The notes: generated by a model not told the origin, from the letters alone. A DNA stretch of 64,000 nt from Bryobacteraceae bacterium (GCA_035568415.1 DATMOC010000049.1:28246-92245); one strand, 5' to 3'; shown: positions 28,001-62,810, numbered from the stretch's first letter. A program made the numbers and translations.

Positions 28001-28539
28001 GACTGGCAATCTGCAAGCAGCTCGCGGAGCTGATGGGGGGGACCGTGGGGCTTCAAAGCGTGTTGGGCATGGGTTCCACGTTTTGGGTGCGATTGCCACT
28101 GGAGCCCGCACGCTGCGACCTGCCAAGCGATCTGGAGCGTCTCAACGCGGTCCACACTAACGGGCGTCCCCTGATTCTGGTGGCCGACGACAATCGGGTG
28201 AATCAGAAGATTGCGTCGATGTTGCTGGCCAAGCTCGGATGCGAAGTAGATATCGCGGTGAATGGCAGGGAAGCTCTGGCGCGCTGGAACCAGCGTCCCT
28301 ACCACGCGATTTTCATGGATTGCCAGATGCCGGAACTCGACGGCTACGAAACCGCGCGCCGCATCCGTGCCGGCGGAGGCCGCGGCAGCGAGATTCCGAT
28401 CATCGCTACCACCGCCAGCTCAATGGACGGAGAGCGCGCACACTGCTTTGCTGCAGGGATGACTGACTACCTTCCCAAACCGTTCAGCATCGACGATCTG
28501 CGGCGAGTGCTTGGGGCTTCTGTGGCGATCCCGTCGTAG
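25078..28539 (+). CDS. Hybrid sensor histidine kinase/response regulator with Reg_prop propeller + Y_Y_Y sensor
   Basis: About 700 aa of ..G.LW.GT..GL.. repeats, then [32 protein letters not shown] (Y_Y_Y), a TM helix, the H-box [38 protein letters not shown], and a C-terminal receiver [12 protein letters not shown]...[14 protein letters not shown]. Confidence 0.9.
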
Positions 28540-47749: not shown

Positions 47750-50700
47750 ATGCCCGCGCCGTTCGTTCATCTGCATTGCCATACCGACTACTCCCTTCTC
47801 GACGGGGCCTGCGAAATCTCGCAGTTGATGGACCTTGTCGCGGCACAGAAGATGCCGGCAATCGCGATGACCGATCACGGCAATCTGTTCGGCGCGGTGG
47901 AGTTTTATAACCAGGCCAAAGCCAAGGGCGTGCATCCCGTAATAGGATGTGAAGTATATGTGGCCCAGCAGGGTCACAAGGTCAACTCGGAGAGTAATCG
48001 CTACAACCACCTGGTGCTGTTGTGCGAAAACCAGGAGGGCTATCGCAATCTGATTCAGTTGGTGTCGACGGGCTATCTGGACGGATTCTATTACAAGCCG
48101 CGCATCGACAAAGACCTGCTTTCGCGGCACTCCAAGGGCCTGATCGCGCTTTCGGCGTGCCTGCGCGGCGATATCAATGAGACGCTGCTGGCGGACAAGT
48201 ACGACGATGCAAAACGGATCGCGTACGAGTACACGGATCTGTTCGGTCCCAAGAACTTCTTCCTGGAAATGCAGGATCACGGCCTGGAGCCTGACAAGCG
48301 CGTCATGCCGCTGGTGAATCGGTTGGCGGCGGACACGGGCATTCCGCTGGTGGTCACCAACGATTCGCACTACTTGCGTTTCGATGACGCGCGGGCGCAC
48401 GAGATCATGCTGTGCATCCAGACCGGCAAGACCATTTCCGATCCAAACCGGATGCGCTTCGAGCAGGAAGCCTTCTACATCAAGACCCGCGACGAGATGA
48501 TGACGCTGTTCGGCGAAGTGGAACACGCCCTCGACCGGACCTGGGACATCGCGCAACGGTGCCAGATAAAGCTCGACCCAGTGGAGGAGCCGTTTCCGAA
48601 ATTCGCTGTTCCACTAGGCCACTCCATCGATACTTATTTCGAATACATCGCGCGCCAGGGATTCGAGAAGCGGCGCGGCCGATTGGAAGCATTTAGAGCC
48701 CAAGGCCGCCTGAAGCATGACATGGCCGAATACGGCGAACGGCTGGATCGCGAAATTAAGATGATCCAGCAGATGAAGTTCTCAGGCTACTTCCTGATTG
48801 TCTGGGACTTCATACAATTCGCGAAGCAGAAAAGCATTCCCGTGGGCCCGGGACGCGGCTCGGCGACAGGAAGTCTGGTGAGTTGGGCGATGGAGATCAC
48901 CGACATCGATCCGCTCGAGTACAGCTTGATCTTCGAGCGCTTTTTGAATCCCGAGCGTGTCAGTATGCCCGATATCGATATCGACTTCTGCACACGCGGG
49001 CGGGGGAGCGTGATTCAGTATGTCACTGAAAAGTACGGACGCGAGCAAGTCGCCCAGATCATCACGTTCGGAACGTTGGGAGCGCGCGCTGCGATCAAGG
49101 ATGTGGGCCGCGCGCTGGATATCAGCTTCGCGGATGTCGACAAGATCACCAAGCTGATCCCCACGCAGCCTCTGAATATCAAACTCAAAGACGCGCGAAA
49201 AATGGAACCCCAGCTCGACGAGCTGGCTCGCAAGGAACCGCGTGTGAAGGAAGTTCTAGAGGTCGCCGAGCGGCTGGAGGGCATGGCTCGCAACGCATCG
49301 GTCCACGCGGCGGGCGTGGTGATTTCGCCGTTGCCACTCAAAGAACTGGTCCCGCTGTACAAGACCAACAAAGACGAAATTGTCACCCAGTACGACATGG
49401 TCGGGTTGGAAAAGCTGGGGCTGCTCAAGATGGATTTCTTGGGCCTTACCACGCTGACCATCATCGAGGACGCGCTCAAACTGATCGAGCGGCATCGCGG
49501 CGTGAAGCTGCACGTGGAGGATCTTCCGCTCGACGACAAAAAGACCTACGAGGCGGTCTTTCAAAAGGGCTACACCAGCGGAATCTTCCAGTTTGAATCT
49601 CCGGGAATGCGTGATATTTTGCGGCGCTACCAGCCAGACCGGCTCGACGATCTTATTGCATTGAACGCGCTGTACCGTCCCGGCCCGATGGACATGATCG
49701 ACGACTTCATCGATCGTAAGCACGGCCGGCGCGAAATCACCTACGATTTTCCGGAACTGAAGGACATTCTGGAAGAATCCTTCGGCGTGATCGTGTATCA
49801 GGAGCAGGTGATGCAGATCTCCAATCGCCTCGCCGGATACTCGCTAGGTGAAGCCGACTTGCTCCGTCGCGCGATGGGTAAGAAAAAAATGGAGGAAATG
49901 GCCAAGCAGCGCGCCCGTTTCCTCGAAGGTGCGAAGGCCAAGGGTCATTCCTCACGCAAGGTCGAAAAGATTTTCGATCAGATGGCGAAGTTCGCCGGCT
50001 ACGGATTCAACAAATCGCATTCGGCCGCATACGCCTATCTGGCGTTCATCACGGGATACTTAAAGACGCACTATCCGCTGGACTTCATGTCGGCACTGCT
50101 CACGTCGCAAACCGGAAACACGGGGCAAGTCGTCAAATACATCAACGAGTGCCGCGAGATGGGAATCAAGATTCTCGCTCCAGACGTCAATTCATCGGAT
50201 TTCGACTTCACTCCCGCACCCGACGGCATTCGCTTCGGCCTGGGAGCGATCAAGAACGTTGGCGGGAATGCGGTGGAATCGATCGCCAAGGCGCGGACTG
50301 AAGGTGGAAACTTCGGATCGCTGTACGACTTCTGCGAGCGCGTCGATCTGGGCGCGGTCAATCGACGCATGATCGAAAGCTTCATCAAGGCCGGCGCGAT
50401 GGATTCGCTGGAGGGCACGCGCGCCCAGCTCACCGCGATTATCGACAAGACCATGGAAACCGGCGCCCGCGCATGGAAGGATCGCGAAAGCGGCCAGTCC
50501 GGATTGTTCACGTCGATGATGGAAGAGCAACCCGCTGCCGATCACCCGCTGCCCAAAGTCCAGGATTGGACCGGCCAGGAAAAGCTGACAGGTGAAAAAG
50601 AGATGCTCGGATTCTACATCACCGGGCATCCGCTGGACGCGCACATGGACAAGGTGAAGGAACTCGCCACGCACACCACCGGCAAGCTGGAAGGGCTCGC

Positions 50701-51211
50701 GAAGAATACCGAGGTCGCGCTGTGCGGAATCCTCACCGGGGTCCAGCGGCGGCGCAGCAAAGAAGGCAAGCTGTGGGCGTCGATGCAGATCGAGGACCTG
50801 GAAGGATCCATCGAAGGGATGGTCTTCTCGACGCAATATGAGCGGCTGATTTCGTTGTTCGACGAAGACAAAGCCGTATTGGTTCGCGGACTGGTGCTGC
50901 CGGAAGAAAACGCGCCGCCGAAGATTTCGATTCAAGATATCGTTCCACTCGAAGTGGCGCGCGTAAGCCTGCCTTCATTGATTTCCATTCGCGTTCCCGT
51001 GAATGGATCTGGCGGCTCGGATCGGGCCGTCGCGCTACAGCAATTGTTCCAGCAGAAGCCTGGCGAGACCGAGGTCCGGCTGCGCCTCGAAAAGTCGAGG
51101 GACTTCTCGGTTATCCTGGACATTACAGCGAAGGTTCGTCCGGATAAGGAATTTTGCGCTGAAGTGGCCCGAATCTGCGGGACTGAGGCGATGGAAGTTC
51201 TGGCGGGCTGA
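47750..51211 (+). CDS. dnaE: DNA polymerase III subunit alpha
   Basis: PHP domain FVHLHCHTDYSLLDGA..., ..GPGRGSATGSLVSWAMEITDIDPL...FERFLNPERVSMPDIDIDF.., HhH and OB regions. 1153 aa. Confidence 0.97.
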   Translation: MPAPFVHLHCHTDYSLLDGACEISQLMDLVAAQKMPAIAMTDHGNLFGAVEFYNQAKAKGVHPVIGCEVYVAQQGHKVNSESNRYNHLVLLCENQEGYRNLIQLVSTGYLDGFYYKPRIDKDLLSRHSKGLIALSACLRGDINETLLADKYDDAKRIAYEYTDLFGPKNFFLEMQDHGLEPDKRVMPLVNRLAADTGIPLVVTNDSHYLRFDDARAHEIMLCIQTGKTISDPNRMRFEQEAFYIKTRDEMMTLFGEVEHALDRTWDIAQRCQIKLDPVEEPFPKFAVPLGHSIDTYFEYIARQGFEKRRGRLEAFRAQGRLKHDMAEYGERLDREIKMIQQMKFSGYFLIVWDFIQFAKQKSIPVGPGRGSATGSLVSWAMEITDIDPLEYSLIFERFLNPERVSMPDIDIDFCTRGRGSVIQYVTEKYGREQVAQIITFGTLGARAAIKDVGRALDISFADVDKITKLIPTQPLNIKLKDARKMEPQLDELARKEPRVKEVLEVAERLEGMARNASVHAAGVVISPLPLKELVPLYKTNKDEIVTQYDMVGLEKLGLLKMDFLGLTTLTIIEDALKLIERHRGVKLHVEDLPLDDKKTYEAVFQKGYTSGIFQFESPGMRDILRRYQPDRLDDLIALNALYRPGPMDMIDDFIDRKHGRREITYDFPELKDILEESFGVIVYQEQVMQISNRLAGYSLGEADLLRRAMGKKKMEEMAKQRARFLEGAKAKGHSSRKVEKIFDQMAKFAGYGFNKSHSAAYAYLAFITGYLKTHYPLDFMSALLTSQTGNTGQVVKYINECREMGIKILAPDVNSSDFDFTPAPDGIRFGLGAIKNVGGNAVESIAKARTEGGNFGSLYDFCERVDLGAVNRRMIESFIKAGAMDSLEGTRAQLTAIIDKTMETGARAWKDRESGQSGLFTSMMEEQPAADHPLPKVQDWTGQEKLTGEKEMLGFYITGHPLDAHMDKVKELATHTTGKLEGLAKNTEVALCGILTGVQRRRSKEGKLWASMQIEDLEGSIEGMVFSTQYERLISLFDEDKAVLVRGLVLPEENAPPKISIQDIVPLEVARVSLPSLISIRVPVNGSGGSDRAVALQQLFQQKPGETEVRLRLEKSRDFSVILDITAKVRPDKEFCAEVARICGTEAMEVLAG

Positions 51212-51225
51212 CCGAAGCTGCACAC

Positions 51226-52071
51226 ATGGCCGATACTCCAGCGCCACAACCTTCGAATCCAAGTTGGGAACGCGTCCAGCTTGCGCGGCACCCCAAGCGT
51301 CCGCACTCGCTCGATTACATCCAGCGGCTTTTTTTGAACTTTCATGAATTGCACGGCGACCGCGCGTTCGGCGAGGATCACGCCATCGTTGCGGGGATGG
51401 GCTGGTTTGATGGCCGGCCTCTGATGATCATCGCGCAGGAAAAAGGCCGCGACACGAAACAGAAAGTCTTCCGCAACTTCGGCTGCCCGCGTCCGGAAGG
51501 CTATCGCAAGGCGCTGCGGCTGATGGAAATCGCCGCGAAATTCAATCGTCCGATCATCACGTTTCTGGACACGCAAGGCGCGTGGCCCGGCAAGGATGCG
51601 GAGGAACGCGGTCAAGGTGAAGCGATCGCCCATAATCTTCGCGAGATGTCCCGGCTCGGCGTGCCGGTCATTGTGGTCGTGATTGGCGAAGGCGGCAGCG
51701 GAGGTGCACTGGCATTGGGCGTCGGCAACCGCGTGTACATGCTGGAAAACGCGGTCTACAGCGTGATCTCGCCCGAAAGCTGCGCGGCGATTATCTATCG
51801 CGATTCGGGAAAAGCTCCGCAGGCCGCCGCCGCACTGAAGATGACCGCGCCGGATTTGCTGGAGCTTGGCCTGATCGACGGCATTATTCCCGAGCCGGGT
51901 GAAGGTGCACATACGAATCCCGACAACGCGGCCGAAGCGCTGGGAGGAACCTTGCGGCACGTTCTGAATGAGCTGTCCGGCATGCCGTCACAGCAGCTGA
52001 TCGACGAGCGCTACGAAAAATTCCGGCGCATGGGCGCGTTCTTCACGGAACCGACGGCCACACACGGATGA
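51226..52071 (+). CDS. accA: Acetyl-CoA carboxylase carboxyltransferase subunit alpha
   Basis: ..LARHPKRPHSLDY...GFGCPRPEGYRKALRLMEIAAKF..PIITFLDTQGAWPG..AEERGQGEAIA...IGEGGSGGALA.. It is somewhat shorter at the N-terminus than E. coli AccA. Confidence 0.93.
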   Translation: MADTPAPQPSNPSWERVQLARHPKRPHSLDYIQRLFLNFHELHGDRAFGEDHAIVAGMGWFDGRPLMIIAQEKGRDTKQKVFRNFGCPRPEGYRKALRLMEIAAKFNRPIITFLDTQGAWPGKDAEERGQGEAIAHNLREMSRLGVPVIVVVIGEGGSGGALALGVGNRVYMLENAVYSVISPESCAAIIYRDSGKAPQAAAALKMTAPDLLELGLIDGIIPEPGEGAHTNPDNAAEALGGTLRHVLNELSGMPSQQLIDERYEKFRRMGAFFTEPTATHG

Positions 52072-52331
52072 AGAAACCGGTCCTCATCGGAGTTTTGTTA
52101 TTCGCAGCGCTGATCGCGTTGATCGCGTATTCAACCATAGGTACGGCGGCGAATCGAGTTGAAGTGTGCATGCAGTATGACGGCCGCACGTCCTGCCGAA
52201 CGGCTGCGGGATCGACCAAGGAATTCGCGCTGCGCACGGCCACGTCGAACGCCTGCGCCGAAATCTCCAGCGGTGTGACGGATACCATCAGGTGCGAACA
52301 CGCAGATCCGGTTCGCGTCACCTGGAAGTAA
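52068..52331 (+). CDS. Hypothetical membrane-anchored small protein
   Basis: 87 aa. ATG overlaps the accA stop (ATGA). N-terminal TM KKPVLIGVLLFAALIALIAY, and 4 Cys in the soluble part. Confidence 0.5.
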   Translation: MKKPVLIGVLLFAALIALIAYSTIGTAANRVEVCMQYDGRTSCRTAAGSTKEFALRTATSNACAEISSGVTDTIRCEHADPVRVTWK

Positions 52332-53282
52332 CTATTTGATCGCGAGGATCCCGTCCAGCACAGTACCCGTGACGCGGCCATCTACCGTGGTGAAGCCTGC
52401 CGCGGAGAGTAGTGCCGCATACTCGCTGAGCGTTCGTTCACGACCTTCCGTGCACACCAGCATGTTCAGCGACTGCATATGAGCAGACACCGGTCCGCGC
52501 CGATCTTCGTGGAGTAGCCGCTCGGCGATAAGCAGTCCGCCACCTGGAGGCAGCGCCGCGTATATTCGGGCCAGCAGATGAGTAATCTTCTCCTGGCTCC
52601 AGTCGTGAAGAATGCGGCCCACAGCAAACAGGTCAGCGGATGGAAGCTCGTCAATGAAGAAATCGCCGGCAATCAGTTCCAATTGAGTGCCGACGCGCTG
52701 ACGTGCGAATTCGATCACTTCCGGGAGATCGAACAGAGTTACCTGCAAATGCGGATAGCGATCCTTTGCAGCGAGAGCCAGGTGGCCGGTCGCGCCCCCC
52801 AGATCCACCAGCCGGTGGAAGCGCGAGAGATCGAACGCCGCGACCACTTTCGGAGAGCTGAGCATTCCGAACCCATGCATGCCCGTCAGGAAATGGCGCT
52901 TGCCTTCCTCGGTCTTGAAGAAATGCGAAAAGAGTCCGCCTTCCAGATCGAACGCCTGTTTCCAGCGGTGCGTGCCTTCGAGCACCGCGTCCTCCAGATG
53001 CGCCCACATCGGGTACAGTGCTGCGTTCGAATAGAGAATATAGCCGGATAGCGTGTGCGGGCTGGAGCGGCGGAGATACTCATCGGCGATCGGCGTATTC
53101 ACGAATTCCTCACCCTTTTTTTCGAGCAGTCCCAGAGCCACGCACGCTTCGAGCAGACGGTCCACTGCTGCGCCCTCGGGGCGCTCGCCATCGAAGATTC
53201 CGAGTGCGACGGCGGCGAACATGGTCTTCGAACGCCGGAAGGCTTCGATCAGGTCGAGTATGGGAGCAGGGTCGGAGGTCAT
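52332..53282 (-). CDS. Class I SAM-dependent O-methyltransferase (Methyltransf_2 type with dimerisation domain)
   Basis: Start chosen at MTSDPAP (the ATG at 53282 overlaps the thiL stop). Contains ..LVDLGGATGHLA.., ..TLFDLPEVI.., ..IAGDFF.., ..AVGRILHDW.., ..GGGLLIAE.. Confidence 0.8.
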   Translation of the reverse strand: MTSDPAPILDLIEAFRRSKTMFAAVALGIFDGERPEGAAVDRLLEACVALGLLEKKGEEFVNTPIADEYLRRSSPHTLSGYILYSNAALYPMWAHLEDAVLEGTHRWKQAFDLEGGLFSHFFKTEEGKRHFLTGMHGFGMLSSPKVVAAFDLSRFHRLVDLGGATGHLALAAKDRYPHLQVTLFDLPEVIEFARQRVGTQLELIAGDFFIDELPSADLFAVGRILHDWSQEKITHLLARIYAALPPGGGLLIAERLLHEDRRGPVSAHMQSLNMLVCTEGRERTLSEYAALLSAAGFTTVDGRVTGTVLDGILAIK

Positions 53283-54106
53283 CGGAAATGGTCGTACCCC
53301 AGAGGTCGAAGCGTACGACCTTCGAATCGTATCGCGCCGGGCGTGCCGGCCACAATCGTTCCGATCGGCAATGTGCCGCGCGGTGCAGTCTTCCCGCGCG
53401 GAAGCGTGAAGAGCAGCTCGTAGTCTTCGCCGCCGTTGAGGGCGCGTTCTATGGTGGCGCCACGGGTCAGGGGAATTCGATCGAGGTCCGCCGCCACGTG
53501 CGATGCCAGGCACACGCGATGCAAATCGAGCGAAAGACCGTCGCTGAGATCGATGCAGGACGTCGCGCGGCCGACTAGCTTCTGGCCCAAAGCCAGCCGC
53601 GGCTCAATGCGGCGCGTCCAGGACTTTCCAAGCGCGCCCGAAACGTAGACGCGATCACCTGGACGCGCGCCATCGCGGCGCAAAGCTTTGCCACGCTGGA
53701 CCGAGCCGCACACTATGACGTCGCAATGGATGTTTTTGGAATGAGCAAGGTCGCCGCCGGCGAGCAGTGTTTTCGTCCGCTTTGCCAACCCGATCAATCC
53801 ACGATAGAAGGCGTCGATCCATTTTTCATAATTCGCCGGAACCGCCAGCGTCACCAGGCAGAAGCGCGGGATGCCTCCCATGGCGGCGATATCGCTGAGG
53901 CTGCGGGCCAGCGATCGCTCTCCGACTGCGCGTGGCGCGTGTGAGCTCAGGAAGTGCACATCTTCGATGGTCTGATCGGTCGTGAATAGAAGATCCTCGT
54001 TGGCGCGGGGCCGGTAGATGGCGCAATCATCGCCGATTCCGAGTACCAGCCCGCGCTGGCCGCGCGTCATGCGCCGAATGCGATCGATGAGTGCGAGCTC
54101 ATTCAT
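53279..54106 (-). CDS. thiL: Thiamine-monophosphate kinase
   Basis: Start chosen at MNELALIDRI. Contains ..LGIGDDCAIY..., ..FTTDQTIEDVHF.., ..AMGGIP.., ..LAGGDL.. The start overlaps the upstream gene by 8 nt. Confidence 0.85.
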   Translation of the reverse strand: MNELALIDRIRRMTRGQRGLVLGIGDDCAIYRPRANEDLLFTTDQTIEDVHFLSSHAPRAVGERSLARSLSDIAAMGGIPRFCLVTLAVPANYEKWIDAFYRGLIGLAKRTKTLLAGGDLAHSKNIHCDVIVCGSVQRGKALRRDGARPGDRVYVSGALGKSWTRRIEPRLALGQKLVGRATSCIDLSDGLSLDLHRVCLASHVAADLDRIPLTRGATIERALNGGEDYELLFTLPRGKTAPRGTLPIGTIVAGTPGAIRFEGRTLRPLGYDHFR

Positions 54107-56702
54107 TGAATACCAAGCCCGCCGGCAATTCTTCGCCGAAAACTTTGCCCATCGCGGCGAGCTGATCCTGCGAATCGGCTTCCAGGTCGATCTCGGGGAA
54201 TGAGCGGCGCACCACGTCGAGAGCGGGACCTGATAAATCGCGCGTCCCATCGCCCGTGCGGCGCGCCATTGCCGCCACGGCGTCTTCCGCTTTGGTCACT
54301 TTAGCGATCGCTTCGATCCACCGCGTCGCCGTCGCGGGCGGAAGCACCTGATTGATCGGGCCGTAGAACAGCTTTCTCGCGCCCAATCGCGCCAGGCACC
54401 ACAGCCCGGTATCTACGAAGTCACCCTGCTTGATCCGCGCGATGAGCTCGTCTCCCAATTGAGTCTTGGTCTGGATCGGCAGCAGCTCCAGGCTCGCGGC
54501 GGCGCGCCACATTTCGCGAAGCAGGCTTGGATTGACGCGCGGCTGCCTCTTGGAAGCTCGCGGAAGCAGTGTAGGCGAGAGGCGCTGGAAAATGTCGGTC
54601 TGCTGGTTGCGATTCAATCCAGCGGCGACGCGGCCCCAGAAAATCCACCACTCGATTTCGTTCTGCACCTGATTCGCGAACTGCAAACCACCGGCGTAGA
54701 CGCGGCGGGCCTGCTCGATGCGATAGTCGTCGCCAGGGAAGCCGAATCCGGGGCGCAGACAAAATCCATACAGATTCAGCCAGCGCAGCTCGTGCGCAGC
54801 GCTGCGTTTGCGGCCGTCCGCGATTTCCAGCATCTGATCGGCAAGCTTGCGGATAGCCGCCAGCGGCCAGGAATTGCGGCCCAATCCGAGCGTTTGTTCC
54901 AGCTTCGCAGGAAGTTGCTGCGGCTCAAGTGTCGCATCGTGGAACGTTGCCGGAATCAGCGTTTCTGCAGCGTCCAGTGCTTCTTCACTGACCACCGCGG
55001 CGGGGCGCGATGCAGCCGTCTGCGCCGTTTTGCGCAATTCAAACTGCAAACGCCAGCGATGTTCAGTCTCCTTGGAATCAGCCCAGATTTCAAGCGTCCC
55101 GACTTCCGTGAGCCGCGCGCCCAGCTTCACCGGAACTAAACGCTCCCCGGCCTTGCCGAATCGAAGAACAGCGTTCAATGGCGCGTGGAGATGCAAGTCG
55201 CCGTCTTCTTTCGAAAATTCAACGACGTCTCCGGCCTTGTCTTCAGTCCGCGTGCGCGAGCTGTACAGTCGAAACGCCACGGCTTTATTGGCGACCAGCT
55301 GCAAATTCCCGGGGTCGACTTCGAGCGTCGAGCCTTCTTCAGCGCCGCGCGGAACCAGACACAGCGTTCGTAGAGCGTCACCACTACCGGCAAGACCGAT
55401 GAAGTACGATCGCGGCAATCCGCCGCGCACCAGCAGCCCCGCGCCGGTTTTACGGACGTAAGAGTAATAGGCCGCGCCCACCGCGACCGCCAGATCCAGA
55501 TCGCGATTTTCTAAAATCACGGGACGCTTGCCGTACCAATGCTCCATCACATCGGCGACGCGCTGGCGCAGAATCTCGGGGATGAAGAAACCTCCGTTGA
55601 ACAGGATCGCGTCCGGTTTCACGTCGCCAGCAGTCGCTAAGAATGCGGCGAGATGACGGGTCACCGCGGGATCGGCCACGTACGGCAGACCCAGTTCGCG
55701 AAACAGGCTCTTTTCTTCTTCTTTGGGCTTGTCGGCCACTTCGCACACCGGCAGGAATCCATCCAGCGCGAGTTCCAGCACCTCCTCACGAAGAATTTCC
55801 GTGCGCAGCGTGCCGCCAACCAGCGCGGATCCTGCCCCGAGCACCGTCACCTCGACACTCTTTAGATTCGGATCAGAAAGCAACTGCTCCTTTGCAGCCG
55901 CACACTGGCGGCGAAGTCCGCTACGTTGGCGGATCGATAACGATTTGCCCAGCTTGGCTTCCACCAGCCAGGTGAGGGTTAGATCGAGATTATCGCCGCC
56001 CAGCAGCAGGTGCCGTCCTACGGCAGTGCGCGTGAAATCGACGCGGTCGCCGTCGCGGGCCACGCGGATCAGAGTGAAGTCACTGGTGCCGCCGCCGACG
56101 TCGCAAACCAAGACAATCTGTCCATCGAAAAGACTCTTTTGCGATCGCGCCAGATCGTTGGCGATCCATGAATAGAACGCAGCAGCCGGCTCTTCGAGCA
56201 GCGTGAGATTCTCGATTCCCGCTTCGCGCGCCGCGAGCACCGTCAGCTCGCAGGCTTCCTCATCGAAACTCGCGGGAACCGTCAGGACTACGTTGTGTTC
56301 GCCCACGGTCGACCCGTGCTGTTTCGCGAACGCCTCGCTCAGATGCTTCACGATGCGCGAAGAAACTTCGACCGGCGAAAGAACGCGGCCCGCATCCTGC
56401 GCATCCCAAGGAAGAATCTTCGCCGTCCGGTCCACCTCGGGATTCGAGAGCCAGCTCTTCGCCGAATGAATGCTTTTGGTGGGGACCAGCGCGCCCTGCT
56501 CGCGCGCGAAGACGCCGACGTATTCCTGATCGCCCAGATACAGGAACGACGGCAGCGTGCGGCGGGGCTCAATGCGGCCTTGCGCGACATACTGCGGCAC
56601 TTCTTGAACGTGGATCGGAGGATAATCGGCTTCGGCCGCTTCCTGCGGATCGATGTATGCCAGCGCTGAATTGGTGGTGCCGAGATCGATCCCTAGGTTC
56701 AC
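54099..56702 (-). CDS. Atypical Hsp70-family ATPase (867 aa) with non-canonical C-terminal half
   Basis: GTG start overlaps the upstream stop (GTGA). The actin-fold/Hsp70 motifs are present: LGIDLGTTNSALAY, VLTVPASFDEEA, LLEEPAAAFYSW, VCDVGGGTSDFTLIRV, LGGDNLD, ILFNGGFFIPEI. aa ~425-570 is beta-rich and aa ~575-867 is helical, with no resemblance to the DnaK lid/EEVD region. Confidence 0.8.
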   Translation of the reverse strand: MNLGIDLGTTNSALAYIDPQEAAEADYPPIHVQEVPQYVAQGRIEPRRTLPSFLYLGDQEYVGVFAREQGALVPTKSIHSAKSWLSNPEVDRTAKILPWDAQDAGRVLSPVEVSSRIVKHLSEAFAKQHGSTVGEHNVVLTVPASFDEEACELTVLAAREAGIENLTLLEEPAAAFYSWIANDLARSQKSLFDGQIVLVCDVGGGTSDFTLIRVARDGDRVDFTRTAVGRHLLLGGDNLDLTLTWLVEAKLGKSLSIRQRSGLRRQCAAAKEQLLSDPNLKSVEVTVLGAGSALVGGTLRTEILREEVLELALDGFLPVCEVADKPKEEEKSLFRELGLPYVADPAVTRHLAAFLATAGDVKPDAILFNGGFFIPEILRQRVADVMEHWYGKRPVILENRDLDLAVAVGAAYYSYVRKTGAGLLVRGGLPRSYFIGLAGSGDALRTLCLVPRGAEEGSTLEVDPGNLQLVANKAVAFRLYSSRTRTEDKAGDVVEFSKEDGDLHLHAPLNAVLRFGKAGERLVPVKLGARLTEVGTLEIWADSKETEHRWRLQFELRKTAQTAASRPAAVVSEEALDAAETLIPATFHDATLEPQQLPAKLEQTLGLGRNSWPLAAIRKLADQMLEIADGRKRSAAHELRWLNLYGFCLRPGFGFPGDDYRIEQARRVYAGGLQFANQVQNEIEWWIFWGRVAAGLNRNQQTDIFQRLSPTLLPRASKRQPRVNPSLLREMWRAAASLELLPIQTKTQLGDELIARIKQGDFVDTGLWCLARLGARKLFYGPINQVLPPATATRWIEAIAKVTKAEDAVAAMARRTGDGTRDLSGPALDVVRRSFPEIDLEADSQDQLAAMGKVFGEELPAGLVFNE

Positions 56703-57202
56703 TCGACTTCAATCTCCGCAGGCGCCAGCACGGTCCCGGGGGGTGTCGACGGAAGCTCGACGTTTTCGGCGCGCCAGCCCTTGTGACGAAGCGTTCCGCC
56801 GGGAGCTTTCCCGCTCGCCGGAACATTGCCGATCAGTTTGATTCCGTCGACGTCGGCCTTGGTGTAGGTGCCTTCGACGCCGTCGATCACCGGCGCGAGC
56901 TTCAAATAGCGCTGCATCGCCTTGCGCGCGTTTTCCTGCACATCACGAACAGCGGCGCCCACCTGCTCATCAGAATAAGCGGAGATATCTTCCATCAGAA
57001 AATCGACCAGCCTCGCGTCGCGCTGCAGAATCGCCAGGATCTGAACCGCGCCGTCGGATGGGCCGGCTTGAGGCTTCGGCGGCGCCGTGGGACGCGTGGG
57101 GACCATCTTTGAATATCCATACGCCTGCGCGATGTCGGAAGGAAGCGAGCCACCAAAGAGGATGGCGAAAAACGCGCGGAATGCAAAAGTAATTCGATTC
57201 AA
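56699..57202 (-). CDS. DUF2760-like protein
   Basis: 167 aa with a TTG start. The N-terminal hydrophobic/amphipathic FAFRAFFAILFG and ..AVQILAILQRDARLVDFLMEDISAYSDEQVGAAVR.. match my recollection of DUF2760, which recurs next to atypical Hsp70 genes. Not verified by search. Confidence 0.6.
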   Translation of the reverse strand: MNRITFAFRAFFAILFGGSLPSDIAQAYGYSKMVPTRPTAPPKPQAGPSDGAVQILAILQRDARLVDFLMEDISAYSDEQVGAAVRDVQENARKAMQRYLKLAPVIDGVEGTYTKADVDGIKLIGNVPASGKAPGGTLRHKGWRAENVELPSTPPGTVLAPAEIEVE

Positions 57203-57242
57203 GCTTTGCCTCGATTAGAGTGGCAGAGATGCCTTTACTATT

Positions 57243-58166
57243 TTACCCGCGCGGTTCCGAAATCCGCGACCCAGGCAGCACTGTGGATTCGCGCAGCTTC
57301 GCCAGTTCGCGCCGCGCGATGGTCGCCCAGTGGCTGGCAGGATCCAGCTTCAAGTAGGTGGTCCAGTGCTGGACAGCTTTCATCGGCTGGTTCGACCCCT
57401 GATACAACAGCGCGACATTGTAGTGTGCATCGGCATAGTTAGGCGAAATCTTCAAGGCGGCTTCGTAGTGTGTGAGCGCGCGGGTGCGGTCCCCGCGTTC
57501 GTCGTACAGATTGGCCAGATCGAAGTGAGCCAGCGCGTATTCGGGATCCACTTCGAGCGCCTGGCGGTAATATTTTTCCGCGTCGCTCCACTTGCGCGCG
57601 TTGAAGTAAATAGTCCCAAGGTTCACCAGCGCTCCGGCGGAGTTTGGATCCAGGCCGATCGCTTTTTGATATGCCTCGATCACCTGTTCGGCGGGCGCGC
57701 CGGACTGTTCCAGGTCGAGTCCGCGCTGGAACCATCGTTCGGCCGTCGCGCGCTGGTCGCGTTCCGTAGCCGCGCGGCTCTTTTGCGGAAACTCCACCAG
57801 CCGTTTCAGCTCAGATTTGCCGAAGTTGAGCAGGAGCTGGCCCGAAACCGCTTCCATCGCGCCGCCGTCGATCTCCACGCGGACCTTTTTCCCATCGGCG
57901 TACAGCTTGAGATCGGTCAGTGGATTTTCAACGTGTTTGAGTTTTTGGCGGAGCGCCGCCAGCGCCTTGCGAAGCTGCAAAGCAGGTACGCGGTCCGCGC
58001 GGAGCTTCAAAATCGTGCGAAGCGCGAGCAGTTCGCGAAAGCCGTAGCTCGGCGTCGACGCGACCAGCTTCTGTTGCTCCCAACTCACGAGTTGACGTTC
58101 AGAGATTCCCAGGAGCCGGAGAACCTCTTTACGCGTATACGCCTGTTTCGCGGCGGCAGCGGGCAC
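57243..58166 (-). CDS. MerR-type HTH + TPR repeat protein
   Basis: The N-terminus YTRKEVLRLLGISERQLVSWEQQKLV is a MerR-like HTH. The C-terminal ~170 aa holds 4-5 TPR units (..AIGLDPNSAGALVNLGTIYFNARKWSDAEKYYRQALEVDPEYALAHFDLANLY.. etc.). Confidence 0.7.
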   Translation of the reverse strand: MPAAAAKQAYTRKEVLRLLGISERQLVSWEQQKLVASTPSYGFRELLALRTILKLRADRVPALQLRKALAALRQKLKHVENPLTDLKLYADGKKVRVEIDGGAMEAVSGQLLLNFGKSELKRLVEFPQKSRAATERDQRATAERWFQRGLDLEQSGAPAEQVIEAYQKAIGLDPNSAGALVNLGTIYFNARKWSDAEKYYRQALEVDPEYALAHFDLANLYDERGDRTRALTHYEAALKISPNYADAHYNVALLYQGSNQPMKAVQHWTTYLKLDPASHWATIARRELAKLRESTVLPGSRISEPRG

Positions 58167-58176
58167 GGATCAAAGT

Positions 58177-58707
58177 TTAGCAAGTCTCGAAAAGTGATAT
58201 CGCGGCGATCCCGGCGGCTCCGGCAGTCATGCAGGCTTTTGCGTTCTCTCGCGTGATGCCCCCCAGCGCCAGCACCGGGATCTTTACGTCACGCGCCGCT
58301 GCCGCAAGCGCCTCTAGACCGCGCGGGGCCAGGCCGGATGTTTTCGACAGCGGTGCAAAAATCGGGCCGAATACGACGTAGTCCGCTCCTTCCTGTTCAG
58401 CCGCGCGAACTTCTTCAATCGCATGGCAGGAGACTCCAATCAGGAATCCAGATGGAGCGACGGCGCGCCACCTCGATGGCGGAAGCGAGCCAGCCGGCAA
58501 ATGTAATCCCGACGCGCCCGCGGCCAGCGCGACGTCCATGCGGATATTCACGATGACCTTCTGCTCTCTTGCCATTACTTGGCGAACCAGTGCCAGCAGG
58601 TCGCGCGCGGGAAGTTCTTTGTCGCGGACCTGAATCCAGTCGACGGATTCGCGCACTGCGTTGTCGAGTCCGCGCAGATGCCGGTCGGTGATGTAGCACC
58701 GGATCAT
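58177..58707 (-). CDS. thiE: Thiamine-phosphate synthase family protein
   Basis: ..WIQVRDKEL.., ..VIVNIRMDVALAAGASGLHL.., ..IGVSCH..., ..GADYVVFGPIFAPLSK.., ..PVLALGGIT... It is short (176 aa). Confidence 0.8.
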   Translation of the reverse strand: MIRCYITDRHLRGLDNAVRESVDWIQVRDKELPARDLLALVRQVMAREQKVIVNIRMDVALAAGASGLHLPAGSLPPSRWRAVAPSGFLIGVSCHAIEEVRAAEQEGADYVVFGPIFAPLSKTSGLAPRGLEALAAAARDVKIPVLALGGITRENAKACMTAGAAGIAAISLFETC

Positions 58708-58735
58708 AACGTGGCACGGGCTTTAGCCTGTGGCG

Positions 58736-59086
58736 TCACGGACTGGATCTCCTCCGCCGTTCCGCCCGCCGGACCTGTGGCTCGTCCATTCCAAAATAGT
58801 GTGCGATCTCGTGCCACACCGTATCGGCGACCATCTTTTCCAAATCCACAGGATTGCTCGACAGCCGTTCGTGCGGACCCTGGTAAATCGTGATCTGGTC
58901 CGGCATGCGGAAGCTGTCGCCAACCCCTCGCGCTGTCAAAGGGACGCCATGATATAAGCCCAGCAGACCGGGCCGCGGAGGCTCGCGCTCCACGACGATC
59001 GCGACGTTTTCGATGCGCTTGCGAAACCGCGCCGGGATGCGCCGCAGCGCGCGTTCCACGATCTTGTCGAACTCCTCAGCGCGCAA
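58736..59086 (-). CDS. Small zinc metallopeptidase-like protein (HExxH)
   Basis: 116 aa with ..FDKIVERALRRIPARFRKRIENVAIVVE... and ..VWHEIAHYFGMDE.., the pattern of the possible-metallopeptidase family found widely in bacteria. Confidence 0.75.
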   Translation of the reverse strand: MRAEEFDKIVERALRRIPARFRKRIENVAIVVEREPPRPGLLGLYHGVPLTARGVGDSFRMPDQITIYQGPHERLSSNPVDLEKMVADTVWHEIAHYFGMDEPQVRRAERRRRSSP

Positions 59087-59087
59087 A

Positions 59088-61448
59088 CTACGGCGTCACC
59101 TTGGTAGCGCGGCCCTCGGCCTCCCCGCGCAGCCAGATCGACAATGGAGCCTTCGGGCTTGGCGACGGCCATGGCATCGCGATGCGCAGCGATTGTTTCG
59201 AGCCTTCGCCCGCGATCGGACGCGGCATCTCCGCGACGTTTAATCCCACACGCGCGTCCCAGCCGGTCTTCTCGATGGTTTCCAAATCGAATCCCTTGAG
59301 GATTCCGTAAAATCCGTCGCCGGATTTTTCGTCGGTCATCGTGAAGCTTTCGATGCGCGGCACCCGCACCACCTTTCCAAGCGTGAACGCGTCGGATTTG
59401 CCCACCTCGGTTTCCACGATCGCCGTGAGCGTGCAGCCGGATTGCCCCACGGCTCCGGGATCGAGCGAAAGAAACAGTGCGCCCGCACCTCCGGAAATCA
59501 GCTGTCCTCCCGGCTGCTTCTCGCCGCCCCGCAACTTGAGAAGTTGGGCGGTGAGCGCCGGCTCAGCGCATTGGACCGTCAACACGGGCTGGGCGTCCGT
59601 CAGGTCGGTCTTCATTGCGAATCCGACCCAGGACCCTGCGGGAATTTCTCCATCCCGAGGCGCGATAACAAGATCGCGAGGAAGCGACGGTTTGGCTTCC
59701 AAAATTCGAGGACGGGCCGCGACAACTTGCAGCGCGACTGGCAGGCGTAGTGCTCCCGCCATTCCGTCCACTTTGGCCGAAAGGGTCCCGGAATCACCCG
59801 CCTTGGCGCCCGCGCGCAGCCGCACAGTCACATTGCGCTGGGACCCGCCCTCAGTCGCCGCCGAGAGTACGATTTCCGCGCGATCCGATTCCAACGCGAC
59901 AATCCGATCCAACCCTGTTCCGGTGAGGGTTACGGCCTGCTCGCGCTCGCCCGCGTTGACGCGAATCCGGTCGAGTTTCGGAACGGGCGGCAGGACACGA
60001 AAAGGAACATCGGTGACGGCGCCGTCGATGCGCGAAAGCGCCAGCAGGTATGGCCCGGCACGCAGCGCGTCTGTATCCAGTTCGACCCGCAAATTCTGTT
60101 GCGCGGCCGGACGATCCGGCGGAAGATCCACAGGAATCTGCCGTGCGCTCTGCGGACGATGCACGGTGGCGTGATCCACGAACAGAAAATCGCAACCCGA
60201 TACTTCCACATCCACCGGACCAGAACCCGCAATAAGTCTATCCTGCGATTCCGGAGTCAGCCGCGCGCTCTTCAAATCGTCGAAGCGATGCAGCCGCACT
60301 GTACCGGCAATCTGGTACGTATCCCAATCCCATTTCCCCTGCAACGTGTATGCGCCGGGCGCGCCAGCGAACTTGCGCAGATCGACGCGCAGCGCGCGTT
60401 CATCCGGAATAGGCCGCACCATCACGTGCATGGGAGGCTGCGAAAATCCTTGCGGAACCAGTGTCCAATCGAAAACGTGATCCATTAACCGCCATTGCGC
60501 CTGATTGTCCAGCTTAAGGGGCACGCCCACGCGCAGGCCGATGGGCACGTCGCTATCCTTCAACACGGAAGCCGCGGGCGGCGCCGTATTGATCACGCGG
60601 TAAGCCCACATGTAGGCCAGCTTGTTGCGCGTGCGTGGCGCGAGCTGCGCACACAGCGTCATGCCATCGGAATCGCCGGGAATCGCGTACACACTGCGAA
60701 ATTCCGTATCCGGCATCAGGAATTGTTTAATCATCGGCAGCGCGCCGGCCCCCGGGAACAAGCCGCCCGCGTTCTCGAAAAATCCTTCGACGCCTTTGCC
60801 CATCATGGTCGCCGATCCAGCGCGGCGACCCGCGCCCAACGGATCGTAACTCGAAACCGACGGGTTCAGTGCCCGCACCAGCGCGAAGATCGCCTGCTCC
60901 GCCGGTGTGGTTGGACGAACTGAACGAGTCGACTCATCGTCAGCCTGCTCCTCCAGCTCGCGCGCCAGTTGCAGCCCTGCCTCCAGATCGGCGGTCTGAT
61001 CCGCGTAGTCGGCCAGTGCCGCCACCATGTTGTCGTCTCTTGTGACCAGGTTGGTCAGCCGCTTTTCGTCCAGCCCCTGCGGCGCGAAGACCACCAGCAC
61101 GATCCGTGCCGCGAAAGGAGTGGCCCATTCCGTGGAACTCGCGGCAAGCCGGGGCTCGAGCACGGTGAGCTGCCCGTCGTTCGCCTTGGGGAGGACAACC
61201 AACGTCAGCTTGGCGTCCTTGCCCAGATTCGCGGGCAAATCGAGCGGCGCATAACTGATGCGGAATCCCGAGCCCAGATTGTTAACCTGATGGATCGGAA
61301 TCGCTTGGGGCGCGTTGGTTCCAGAAGGCCGGGCAGAGAGCCGGAAGCTAGTCACTGCGGTGCTCCCAACGCATCCGCGAGGAGCGCCACAGGTCAGCGC
61401 GGCAAACAGCCAGAAGCCGGAAGCTAGTACAGCAAGTCGCGGCAACAT
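59088..61448 (-). CDS. Large secreted hypothetical protein (786 aa)
   Basis: Signal-like MLPRLAVLASGFWLFAAL. Non-repetitive N-terminal ~330 aa, then beta-rich segments suggestive of Ig-like modules. The stop lies 1 nt before the next gene's start codon. No family recognised. Confidence 0.6.
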   Translation of the reverse strand: MLPRLAVLASGFWLFAALTCGAPRGCVGSTAVTSFRLSARPSGTNAPQAIPIHQVNNLGSGFRISYAPLDLPANLGKDAKLTLVVLPKANDGQLTVLEPRLAASSTEWATPFAARIVLVVFAPQGLDEKRLTNLVTRDDNMVAALADYADQTADLEAGLQLARELEEQADDESTRSVRPTTPAEQAIFALVRALNPSVSSYDPLGAGRRAGSATMMGKGVEGFFENAGGLFPGAGALPMIKQFLMPDTEFRSVYAIPGDSDGMTLCAQLAPRTRNKLAYMWAYRVINTAPPAASVLKDSDVPIGLRVGVPLKLDNQAQWRLMDHVFDWTLVPQGFSQPPMHVMVRPIPDERALRVDLRKFAGAPGAYTLQGKWDWDTYQIAGTVRLHRFDDLKSARLTPESQDRLIAGSGPVDVEVSGCDFLFVDHATVHRPQSARQIPVDLPPDRPAAQQNLRVELDTDALRAGPYLLALSRIDGAVTDVPFRVLPPVPKLDRIRVNAGEREQAVTLTGTGLDRIVALESDRAEIVLSAATEGGSQRNVTVRLRAGAKAGDSGTLSAKVDGMAGALRLPVALQVVAARPRILEAKPSLPRDLVIAPRDGEIPAGSWVGFAMKTDLTDAQPVLTVQCAEPALTAQLLKLRGGEKQPGGQLISGGAGALFLSLDPGAVGQSGCTLTAIVETEVGKSDAFTLGKVVRVPRIESFTMTDEKSGDGFYGILKGFDLETIEKTGWDARVGLNVAEMPRPIAGEGSKQSLRIAMPWPSPSPKAPLSIWLRGEAEGRATKVTP

Positions 61449-61493
61449 GTATTTAGTTTACGCGCAGCGCACCTGTGATATAAATGGGCTGCT

Positions 61494-62810
61494 ATGACCA
61501 AGCAAGAAATTATCCTGGCGAATCAACAATACCTGTATCCGGCGGTCTTTCATTACTATAAGGAGCCGCTCGTGGTCACGCGAGCCAAAGATCAATACGT
61601 TTGGGATATCGACGGCAATCAGTACCTGGATTTTTTCGGCGGCATCGTCACCATCGGCGTCGGCCACTGCAATGAGACGGTCAACAAGAAGGTCCACGAG
61701 CAGATGGATAAGCTGCAGCACGTCTCCACTGTTTTCGCGAATGAGCCACAAGCTGCGCTGGCCAAACGGATCGCGGAGATCACGCCCGGCGGCAAGCTCA
61801 CTAAGAGTTATTTCACCAACAGCGGAACCGAAGCTAACGAAACGGCGTTCGTCACGGCGCGCTGCTACACCGGAAATCACGAAATCGTCGCGCTGCGGCA
61901 CAGCTATCACGGCCGCTCCGCAATTGCGATGCAGGCGACCGGAAATTCCGCGTGGCGGCTGGGCCTCTCCGCTCCGAACGGTTTCGTCCACGCGCTTGCC
62001 GGCTATTGCTATCGCTGCCCGCTTGGCCTGACGTACCCGTCCTGCAACGTACGTTGCGCGCGTGATATGGATGAGATGATCCGCACGTCGACGTCAGGCA
62101 AAATCGCCGCGTTCATTGCCGAGCCGATCCAGGGCGTCGGCGGGTTCATCACGCCTCCCAAGGAATATTTCGAGATCGTCCACGGGATCATCAAAAAATT
62201 CGGCGGCCTGTTTATCAGCGATGAAGTGCAGACCGGATGGGGCCGCACTGGCGGGAAGTGGTTCGGAATCGAGCAGTGGGGCGTCCAGCCCGACATCATC
62301 ACCAGCGCGAAGAGCCTGGGAAACGGTGCTCCCGTGGGGCTCACCGTCGCACGTCCCGAAGTGGCCGACGCGATGAAAGGCGCGACCATCTCGACCTTCG
62401 GTGGCAATCCCGTGACGGCCACGCAGGCCAAGGCCGTGATCGATTACATCGACGAACACAAGCTCATGATCAACGCGGCCGAAGTTGGGGCTTATCTGCG
62501 TGCCAAGCTTGAAGAGATGAAAGCGAAGCACTCCATCATCGGCGAAGTTCGCGGCATGGGCCTACTGGTCGGCGTCGAACTGGTGGAGGATCGCGAAACC
62601 AGAGCTCCCGCGGCCGCCGCGGTGAACGCGCTGATGGAAGCGTCGCGCGAGAATCGGCTGATGATCGGCAAGGGCGGCACGTATGGAAACGTGATCCGTA
62701 TTTCGCCTCCGCTGAATATTTCCAAATCCGATGTGGACGAGTTCGCGTTGCGCTTCGAAGCCAGCCTCCAACGCGTCGTCGCGTCGAACCTCGCAGGTGC
62801 GGCACGCTAA
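61494..62810 (+). CDS. Class III PLP aminotransferase (AGXT2 / beta-alanine-pyruvate type)
   Basis: ..FTNSGTEANETA.., ..AFIAEPIQGVGG.., ..LFISDEVQTGWGRTG.., ..DIITSAKSLGNG.. (PLP-Lys), ..TFGGNPV.. 438 aa. Confidence 0.9.
   Translation: MTKQEIILANQQYLYPAVFHYYKEPLVVTRAKDQYVWDIDGNQYLDFFGGIVTIGVGHCNETVNKKVHEQMDKLQHVSTVFANEPQAALAKRIAEITPGGKLTKSYFTNSGTEANETAFVTARCYTGNHEIVALRHSYHGRSAIAMQATGNSAWRLGLSAPNGFVHALAGYCYRCPLGLTYPSCNVRCARDMDEMIRTSTSGKIAAFIAEPIQGVGGFITPPKEYFEIVHGIIKKFGGLFISDEVQTGWGRTGGKWFGIEQWGVQPDIITSAKSLGNGAPVGLTVARPEVADAMKGATISTFGGNPVTATQAKAVIDYIDEHKLMINAAEVGAYLRAKLEEMKAKHSIIGEVRGMGLLVGVELVEDRETRAPAAAAVNALMEASRENRLMIGKGGTYGNVIRISPPLNISKSDVDEFALRFEASLQRVVASNLAGAAR

Follow-up and report, generated by a model that had tools for sequence, protein, structure and literature searches.

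A reduced DUF2760-Hsp70 gene module in a Bryobacteraceae bacterium and its relatives in several bacterial phyla

We analyzed a 64,000-nucleotide (nt) stretch of DNA from a Bryobacteraceae bacterium (GCA_035568415.1 DATMOC010000049.1:28246-92245), referred to here as the window, in which a small DUF2760 protein is encoded directly before a long, atypical member of the Hsp70 family. A first-pass annotation made from the sequence alone had combined these two genes with the gene upstream of them, whose product carries a MerR-like helix-turn-helix (HTH) and tetratricopeptide repeats (TPR), into a self-contained and possibly self-regulated three-component Hsp70 machine. The three open reading frames (ORFs) were found on the minus strand as annotated, including the GTG start of the Hsp70 gene and its overlap with the DUF2760 gene (Table 1). 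We show that the DUF2760 and Hsp70 genes belong to a conserved module of which the window carries a reduced form, and that the MerR/TPR gene is a local neighbor of this module.

Proteins encoded by the module in the window

The 167-amino acid (aa) protein matched the Pfam model of DUF2760 (PF10816) with an E value of 4e-33 (114.2 bits against a cut-off of 25; profile positions 3-124 of 124), as the first-pass annotation had surmised, and all family-invariant residues were present. The protein consists of a basic-hydrophobic N-terminal helix (aa 3-17), a variable Pro-rich linker (aa 28-48), and a conserved domain (aa 49-167). The invariant elements in the C-terminal half of the family are an LRHxGW motif and a terminal PAE(V/I)E tail; the window protein ends with PAEIEVE, and the tail is just as conserved in phyla without the TPR protein. 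Among 123 diverse DUF2760 proteins, 49 contained one or two transmembrane segments before the domain, and the others contained a conserved R..AF(R/K).FF..LF helix. The AlphaFold 2 (AF2) model of the window protein (pLDDT, the predicted local distance difference test score, 74) showed a confident helical core at aa 49-99 and an extended C-terminal half of lower confidence, as would be expected of a region that folds on a partner. DUF2760 was also considered as an analog of a J-domain protein or GrpE. This was rejected, as the best Foldseek match in the PDB had an E value of 0.6 and a template-modeling score of ~0.2, and a sequence search of the PDB returned nothing.

The stop codon of the DUF2760 gene and the start codon of the Hsp70 gene share 4 nt, GTGA, as read from the window sequence, and the overlap predicts translational coupling of the two genes. 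The 867-aa product of the second gene is composed of a nucleotide-binding domain (NBD, ~aa 1-420), an all-beta block (~aa 430-556), and an all-alpha region (aa 634-864). The Pfam HSP70 model (PF00012) covered residues 3-313 above its cut-off (E value of 6e-21), and the match ended at profile position 303 of 599. The C-terminal helical region, to which the first-pass annotation had given no known class, was instead recognized as DUF3731 (PF12531) with an E value of 1.5e-65 (222 bits against a cut-off of 25; profile positions 1-247 of 248), and is predicted to replace the alpha-helical lid that DnaK carries as the second part of its substrate-binding domain (SBD-alpha). No NCBIfam model matched the protein from end to end. 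The HscA model NF003520, the best of them, reached 96.5 bits against 620 over residues 2-287 only, the DnaK model TIGR02350 reached 78 bits against a cut-off of 823, and the matches included no HscC-specific model. A profile search of the PDB also matched the NBD only. These results agree with the earlier description of the protein as an atypical Hsp70, and its sequence places it in the Hsp70 superfamily by the NBD but outside DnaK, HscA, and the other curated Hsp70 types. Weak matches to MreB_Mbl and EutJ were also observed, with MreB at 21 bits against a cut-off of 27.

The catalytic center was compared in 57 long and 60 short paralogs from the loci described below, which were aligned to Escherichia coli DnaK with the DnaK register checked against PDB chains. 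The motifs DLGTTNS and DxGGGTxD were invariant, and D8, K70, E171, D194, T199, and D201 (DnaK numbering) were invariant in all of these paralogs and in the window protein. The DnaJ-contact residues were changed in all paralogs (R167 to T, N170 to E, and T173 to A or Q, in the same numbering).

Only the secondary-structure layout was used from the full-length AF2 model of the long Hsp70 (shallow alignment, pLDDT 58), which was all-beta at aa 432-555 and contained ~14 helices at aa 573-850. In this low-confidence model, the NBD gives way to a hydrophobic segment and then to a beta-rich domain, at the places taken in DnaK by the linker and the beta part of the substrate-binding domain (SBD-beta). 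The top Foldseek matches of the model were two-domain Hsp70s with nearly the whole target aligned, which is weak evidence at this model confidence. In an hhalign comparison, the sole aligned stretch of the beta block resembled the last SBD-beta hairpin of DnaK. An SBD-beta-like nature of the beta block is plausible from the modeled layout.

The ratio of nonsynonymous to synonymous substitution rates (dN/dS) was 0.07-0.10 for the long Hsp70. All three window genes were under purifying selection, with dN/dS values of 0.07-0.18 against two-gene relatives, a comparison in which dS was saturated.

Table 1. Coordinates of the module genes and of neighboring features in the window
Feature	Position (strand)	Basis
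Long atypical Hsp70, 867 aa, GTG start	54099..56702 (-)	Pfam HSP70 and DUF3731
DUF3731 ("DnaK-related") helical domain of the long Hsp70	54111..54803 (-)	PF12531, aa 634-864
DUF2760 protein, 167 aa	56699..57202 (-)	PF10816
GTGA overlap, DUF2760 stop and Hsp70 start	56699..56702 (-)	Sequence inspection
Protein with MerR-like HTH, beta-rich middle, and ~4 TPR units, 307 aa	57243..58166 (-)	TPR models; MerR_1 below threshold
thiE/TenI-like gene, syntenic flank	58177..58707 (-)	PF02581, E value of 4e-44
thiL (thiamine-phosphate kinase), syntenic flank	53279..54106 (-)	TIGR01379, 214 bits, over its cut-off

Occurrence of the module across genomes

Loci were collected from species-representative genomes by DUF2760 alignment. 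The best 80 loci were all from Bryobacterales or other Acidobacteriota, and the cross-phylum evidence therefore rests on 11 contexts outside Acidobacteriota that were obtained by other routes. These comprised three annotated plasmids or chromids (Bradyrhizobium, Thiodictyon, and a Comamonadaceae bacterium) and eight contigs from metagenome-assembled genomes or metagenomes, including Myxococcota. Six-frame ORFs of the collected loci were probed with the window proteins, and 60 Bryobacterales loci, one duplicate pair (L001/L002) included, had adequate flanks for analysis.

In the 11 loci from other phyla, an Hsp70 gene of ~600 aa was located directly 3' of the DUF2760 gene without exception, with a 4-nt overlap between the two in nine of them, and in eight a DUF3731-containing paralog of ~900-950 aa followed immediately. 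The flanks of the module varied among these loci. The short paralog matches the long one from residue 1 to ~560, that is, over the NBD and the beta block, and does not contain DUF3731. Throughout the Bryobacterales loci, DUF2760 was likewise encoded upstream of, and overlapping, an Hsp70-like gene. The short Hsp70 (~600 aa) followed by the long DUF3731 Hsp70 was present after DUF2760 in 36 of the 60 loci, the long Hsp70 alone, which is the arrangement of the window, in 15, and the short Hsp70 alone, within 10 kb, in 9. The linkage of DUF2760 to an atypical Hsp70 was thus seen in Acidobacteriota, Alpha-, Beta-, and Gammaproteobacteria, and Myxococcota, in line with the first-pass annotation, which placed the family beside such genes. 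These results indicate that the usual module consists of DUF2760, a lidless Hsp70 of ~600 aa, and an Hsp70 of ~870-950 aa with DUF3731.

The window carries a two-gene form in which the short paralog is absent and purifying selection has been kept. The locus is therefore a reduced form and not the complete, self-contained machine proposed at first, since the ~600-aa Hsp70 that usually lies between DUF2760 and the long Hsp70 is missing. A second Hsp70 was not found in the 64-kb window, although the rest of the genome may hold one. The NBD of the window protein scored as long-type throughout (~650-800 bits against long paralogs and ~270-300 against short ones), and an origin by recombination between a short and a long paralog was rejected. 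With no second Hsp70 and a long-type NBD, the window form is a simple deletion form and not a chimera.

No J-domain or GrpE gene was found beside the module in any neighborhood sampled, and neither these nor a MerR/TPR gene was present in the 11 cross-phylum contexts. The first-pass annotation had seen no J-domain or GrpE gene in the window, and none of the flanking window genes scanned matched these families, although the rest of the genome may encode a nucleotide-exchange factor.

The DUF2760 family comprises 1,731 clusters at 50% identity. It was encoded on 11 of 72,556 plasmids, and no member was detected in phage records or in IMG/VR contigs. No mention of DUF2760 or DUF3731 was found in the literature searched; both are catalogued Pfam families that have been visible in databases for years. 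No mention of paralogs, YegD, or additional or uncharacterized Hsp70s was found in Mayer's review of bacterial Hsp70 machines.

Two further observations concern individual loci. In four Myxococcota-like loci, a protein of ~440-476 aa with faint HEAT_2/TPR matches was encoded beside or near the module (L087, 9452-10762; L088, 10817-12148; L171, 2022-3404; L172, 5152-6582), and in L171 and L172 an acylphosphatase gene lay alongside it. This protein may be a lineage-specific helical-repeat neighbor comparable to the MerR/TPR gene of Bryobacterales. In addition, the locus on plasmid pTs485 of Candidatus Thiodictyon syntrophicum (L084, 1-15112) carried only DUF2760 and the short Hsp70. It was surrounded by DUF1156, DUF3780, and PLD genes annotated as anti-phage, a VapC toxin gene, and a gene for a TIR-domain protein, and was the sole defense-island context seen.

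The MerR/TPR neighbor and the surrounding gene string

The 307-aa protein encoded 40 nt upstream of DUF2760 on the same strand had been described as a MerR-type HTH fused to 4-5 TPR units. The TPR part of this description was upheld, with three strong units and one degenerate unit, and the MerR part received weak support: the MerR_1 model gave 17.6 bits against a cut-off of 21.6 at the N-terminus (E value of 0.004, below threshold). When a profile of 29 homologs was searched against the PDB, the MerR-family HTH proteins Alr3614, CarH, LitR, and TnrA/GlnR ranked first, with E values of only 0.017-0.1. After the HTH, a conserved beta-rich region and the TPRs take the place of the MerR dimerization helix. 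A match to phrog_31673, a phage protein family of unknown function, was observed at 57849-58109 (aa 20-106; E value of 1.3e-9) and was stronger than that to MerR_1.

We examined the linkage of this gene to the module in both directions. A homolog with the N-terminal domain adjoined DUF2760 (at most 400 bp away) in 17 of the 60 Bryobacterales loci and was located within 2.4 kb in 6 more. It was absent from 37, and a relative whose Hsp70 is 82% identical to that of the window already lacks it. None of the 11 loci of other phyla contained a homolog. In the reciprocal test with 44 metagenomic MerR/TPR loci, DUF2760 was adjacent in 11, 0.9-4.6 kb away in 16, and absent in 17. The genes in these 0.9-4.6-kb gaps were mostly on the opposite strand, and a shared operon is therefore not present in those genomes. 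The gaps themselves recurred: seven loci of one sub-lineage (L151, L155, L160, L147, L153, L138, and L161) had a gap of ~1.44-1.5 kb with two opposite-strand ORFs of ~240 aa, and three loci of another sub-lineage (L129, L150, and L145) had a gap of ~0.9 kb with one opposite-strand ORF of 288 aa. The link to thiE was tighter than that to DUF2760, with thiE directly upstream of the MerR/TPR gene in 37 of 58 loci. The conserved three-gene linkage expected by the first-pass annotation was thus not found. These results indicate that the MerR/TPR gene is a local, lineage-specific neighbor and not a core component, with a regional association that is real within one order. The association behaves like inherited synteny, in the order thiE, MerR/TPR, sometimes another gene, the module, thiL, and O-methyltransferase.

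Self-regulation by the MerR/TPR protein and docking of its TPRs on the Hsp70 had also been proposed. A simple scan of three candidate intergenic regions found no operator-like inverted repeats, such as the palindrome inside a promoter with a 19-20-bp spacer that is expected for a MerR-family regulator. The long Hsp70 ends with GLVFNE and has no EEVD-type motif, unlike the partner chaperones of Hop/CHIP-type TPR co-chaperones, whose carboxylate-clamp TPRs bind such a motif. Moreover, the DUF2760 and Hsp70 tails are equally conserved in lineages without the TPR protein, and their partner must therefore be a core component. Among MerR-family proteins, HspR uses DnaK as a corepressor and CbpM modulates the DnaJ homolog CbpA. 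The window protein resembles these in being a putative MerR-type HTH protein encoded beside chaperone genes. It differs from them in its sub-threshold HTH, in the beta-rich region and TPRs found instead of a MerR dimerization helix, and in a linkage to the module that is facultative and lineage-restricted, with no operator found. No finding here argues for a regulatory or adaptor role of the MerR/TPR protein in Bryobacterales.

Thiamine genes lie on both sides of the module. The thiE-like gene lies 10 nt upstream of the MerR/TPR gene, and thiL, whose likely ATG at 54106 lies within the longest ORF (which overstates the gene), overlaps the Hsp70 stop by 8 nt. Eight head-to-tail genes occupy 52332-61448 on the minus strand, with gaps or overlaps of at most 40 nt wherever measured, in the order 786-aa protein, Zincin_1, thiE-like, MerR/TPR, DUF2760, Hsp70, thiL, and O-methyltransferase. 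These eight genes are probably transcribed together as one long unit, in which the module lies between two thiamine genes. In Bryobacterales, thiL followed the long Hsp70 in 36 of 53 loci, and the order of thiL and then the methyltransferase 3' of the long Hsp70 was kept in many. GC content was even across the window. The Rfam scan of the window detected two tRNAs elsewhere but no regulatory RNA and no riboswitch. A simple scan of 51900-62000 found no sigma-70-like promoter, although acidobacterial promoters may differ, and promoter and terminator scans around the locus were at or under background. The module is vertically inherited within a tightly packed housekeeping gene string (thiE to thiL), and its genes are probably constitutively co-expressed.

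The 786-aa protein at the head of this string (59088-61448, minus strand) is hydrophobic at its N-terminus and matched nothing in Pfam or NCBIfam. In L008 and L023, a homolog is encoded at the corresponding place upstream of thiE. Elsewhere in the window, two ORFs of exactly 1,153 aa were noticed at 25078-28539 and 47750-51211, both on the plus strand. A relation between them was rejected; one encodes a hybrid sensor histidine kinase (Reg_prop/Y_Y_Y) and the other DnaE, and the equal length is coincidental.

Possible mode of action and competing explanations

The module was compared with the closest known systems. As in the DnaK-DnaJ-GrpE system, the NBD of the window Hsp70 has all catalytic residues and, in the low-confidence model, is followed by a hydrophobic segment and a beta-rich domain. 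It departs from that system in that curated models align over residues 2-287 only and far under their cut-offs, and in that the module has DUF3731 for the lid, replacements of R167 and N170, a DUF2760 partner, and no linked J-domain or GrpE gene. In E. coli, HscC has the membrane-anchored J-proteins DjlC and DjlB, and DjlA pairs with DnaK. These pairs resemble the module as a specialized, non-heat-shock Hsp70 paralog encoded beside a small, putatively membrane-anchored, dedicated partner. However, DUF2760 lacks an HPD motif and did not match the J-domain fold, the C-terminal domain of the Hsp70 differs, and no HscC-like end-to-end match was among the NCBIfam matches, which contained no HscC-specific model. 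Joint action of two divergent Hsp70-family ATPases, of which one has a lengthened helical region at its C-terminus, is also known from Hsp110/Sse1-Hsp70 (PDB 3c7n) and from the ribosome-associated complex Ssz1-Zuo1 with Ssb (PDB 6sr6 and 7x3k). These three structures were among the fold matches of the Hsp70 model, which reflects the shared Hsp70 fold and no specific relationship. The resemblance is an analogy only, as the window holds one paralog and no J-protein is involved.

CnuD of the CoCoNuT systems has an Hsp70-like NBD and SBD and then a helical-repeat domain, without J-domain proteins or GrpE beside it (PMC11090510), a layout similar to that predicted for the long Hsp70. CnuD occurs together with McrBC-type CnuB/C genes and HEPN nucleases, and its Walker-like motifs are degenerate (PMC11090510), whereas the present module has neither McrBC-type nor HEPN neighbors and its catalytic residues are invariant. 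In Myxococcus xanthus, MXAN_5323 is a 925-aa Hsp70 with the NBD as its only domain match; its deletion is viable and reduces sporulation and H2O2 tolerance, and the gene fails to complement E. coli dnaK (PMC8265645). Its length and NBD-only annotation fit a long DUF3731 paralog, and Myxococcota carry the three-gene module. MXAN_5323 is a candidate member of the family and the sole possible experimental lead; the paper mentions neither DUF2760 nor an adjacent paralog (PMC8265645). The stk locus of M. xanthus was rejected as a match, as it encodes the 540-aa StkA, the SCP2-like StkB, and the small StkC and is a different cluster.

We consider it fairly probable that the locus is the reduced two-gene form of a widespread module encoding an Hsp70-type machine independent of J-domain proteins and GrpE, with DUF2760 as a cofactor that is probably tethered to the membrane. 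The long protein would be a working Hsp70-type ATPase with an intact catalytic center and probably an SBD-beta-like beta-sandwich, in which the helical scaffold of DUF3731 would stand in for the lid and which would work without DnaJ or GrpE. DUF2760 would be the dedicated, stoichiometric partner (cofactor or adaptor) of this ATPase. It would probably lie on the cytoplasmic side of the membrane, anchored by its N-terminal hydrophobic helix (a predicted true transmembrane segment in ~40% of the family). Contact with the ATPase would probably be made by the conserved domain and the C-terminal tail of DUF2760, which would recruit or regulate the ATPase in much the way that membrane-anchored co-chaperones act on canonical Hsp70s. 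Where all three genes are present, the two Hsp70 paralogs would probably work as a pair, one regulating the other, as in Hsp110-Hsp70 or Ssz1-Ssb, and the absence of GrpE would be explained if they do. The lineage of the window would have dispensed with the short paralog, and DUF2760 with the long Hsp70 would then be the minimal unit. A further-reaching proposal, which we put forward only tentatively, is that DUF2760 represents a new class of Hsp70 cofactor that stands in for the J-domain protein, and perhaps also for the exchange factor, in a membrane-tethered, J-independent machine with one or two Hsp70 paralogs in several phyla. Such a machine would be an exception to the rule that Hsp70s have J-domain partners.

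Several points weigh against this interpretation. The data concern anatomy and linkage, and from these we infer the mechanism, contact between DUF2760 and the Hsp70 included. The cross-phylum sample of 11 loci is small, and linkage inside one order may partly reflect shared ancestry. The N-terminal helix of the window DUF2760 is too short and too weakly hydrophobic for a clear transmembrane segment (maximum Kyte-Doolittle score of 1.41 over 19 residues). For the long Hsp70, the full-length AF2 model was poor (pLDDT 58), the profile search of the PDB found no solved relative of the beta block or of DUF3731, and identification of the beta block as SBD-beta by sequence was rejected, with an hhalign probability of 0.08 against the DnaK SBD. 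Finally, the window Hsp70 has Cys151 (TGC, 56250-56252, minus strand) where 120 close homologs and the 57 locus-derived long paralogs all have Arg. The position aligns with R151 of DnaK, an allosteric residue, and the window copy may for this reason be functionally altered. Cys151 may reflect true variation in this strain, or an error in sequencing.

If the last point were taken further, the window copy might be a decaying remnant that lost its function after loss of the short paralog and the R151C change, as the missing short Hsp70 and the uniqueness of Cys151 among 121 close homologs and 57 other long paralogs could suggest. We regard this as very improbable, as every reading frame is intact, the coupling overlaps are preserved, the two-gene form recurs in 15 of 60 loci, and dN/dS against two-gene relatives is 0.07-0.18. 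The three-component machine of the first-pass annotation, in which the MerR/TPR protein would both control transcription of the module, in the manner of HspR with DnaK, and dock on the Hsp70 through its TPRs, is unlikely, although less so than decay. In the window, 40 nt separate the gene from DUF2760, with both on one strand, and the gene is under purifying selection; homologs are found no more than ~5 kb from DUF2760 in 27 of 44 metagenomic loci and next to it in 17 of 60 genome loci, with both two- and three-gene forms, and the PDB list for the N-terminal profile is topped solely by MerR-family HTH proteins. Against this stand its absence from 37 of 60 Bryobacterales loci and all 11 of the other phyla, the opposite-strand genes that often separate it from DUF2760, its tighter link to thiE (37 of 58), the sub-threshold MerR_1 match, and the lack of any inverted repeat or promoter-like site upstream in the scans made. 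The C-terminal tails of DUF2760 and the Hsp70 are, in addition, equally conserved where the TPR protein is absent.

Two further explanations appear to us improbable to a similar degree, and each more so than the three-component machine. The module might be an anti-phage or conflict system in which the Hsp70-like ATPase would act as a sensor or motor, a role proposed for CnuD, which joins an Hsp70-like NBD/SBD with HEAT-like helices (PMC11090510). The Thiodictyon plasmid copy, whose neighbors are anti-phage genes (DUF1156/PLD) and genes for a VapC toxin and a TIR protein, would fit such a role, as would another copy on a conjugative Bradyrhizobium plasmid and a weak PADLOC match of part of the NBD to PDC-M61B (E value of 4.6e-5). 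However, the module contains no effector domain (nuclease, TIR, pore-former, or protease), its flanks are variable and mostly housekeeping, and in Bryobacterales it is syntenic between thiE and thiL. GC content is uniform, and few plasmids and no phage records or IMG/VR contigs carry DUF2760. The fully conserved catalytic residues and the lack of McrBC-type genes nearby set the module apart from CnuD. In PADLOC-DB v2, DUF2760 had no match, the Hsp70 only the partial NBD match to the candidate PDC-M61B, and the TPR protein generic TPR matches only. A defense or mobile-element origin was rejected, as PADLOC, PHROGs, phage, plasmid, and IMG/VR searches were negative or nearly so; the PHROGs scan was less clean than the other mobile-element searches, as the NBD and the TPRs matched families of unknown function. 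Alternatively, the long protein might be not a chaperone but an actin-like, membrane-tethered, polymerizing or remodeling ATPase, comparable to FtsA or MreB, both of which have amphipathic helices, with DUF2760 as the tether. The actin fold of the Hsp70 NBD, the weak MreB_Mbl and EutJ matches, the amphipathic or transmembrane N-terminus of DUF2760, and the loss of the canonical lid are compatible with this. The Hsp70-specific Lys70, DLGTTNS, and DxGGGTxD are invariant, though, the MreB match is below threshold (21 bits against 27), and the top structural matches were all Hsp70s, with the alignment running through the SBD.

In the general view, Hsp70s hydrolyze ATP when triggered by J-domain proteins and rely on exchange factors to begin the cycle anew. 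The module stands outside this picture: with 1,731 DUF2760 clusters and occurrence in at least four phyla, it joins catalytically intact ATPases to a small protein without a fold match in the PDB, no linked J-domain or GrpE gene was seen, and the DnaJ-contact residues are replaced. DUF2760 and DUF3731 were known before as Pfam families. New here is the Hsp70 system with a predicted dedicated partner that is neither a J-domain protein nor GrpE, of which the window holds a reduced member. The idea of the MerR/TPR protein as a regulator and adaptor has been removed as unsupported, and the initial three-gene proposal was largely not borne out; the module itself is widespread, unexplained, and experimentally approachable. 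The two-gene form marks the long paralog and DUF2760 as the minimal unit retained by selection, which makes it a convenient start for biochemistry. If DUF2760 does drive or localize these ATPases, the module would represent a new way to run the Hsp70 cycle and possibly a new membrane-proximal function in proteostasis or remodeling.

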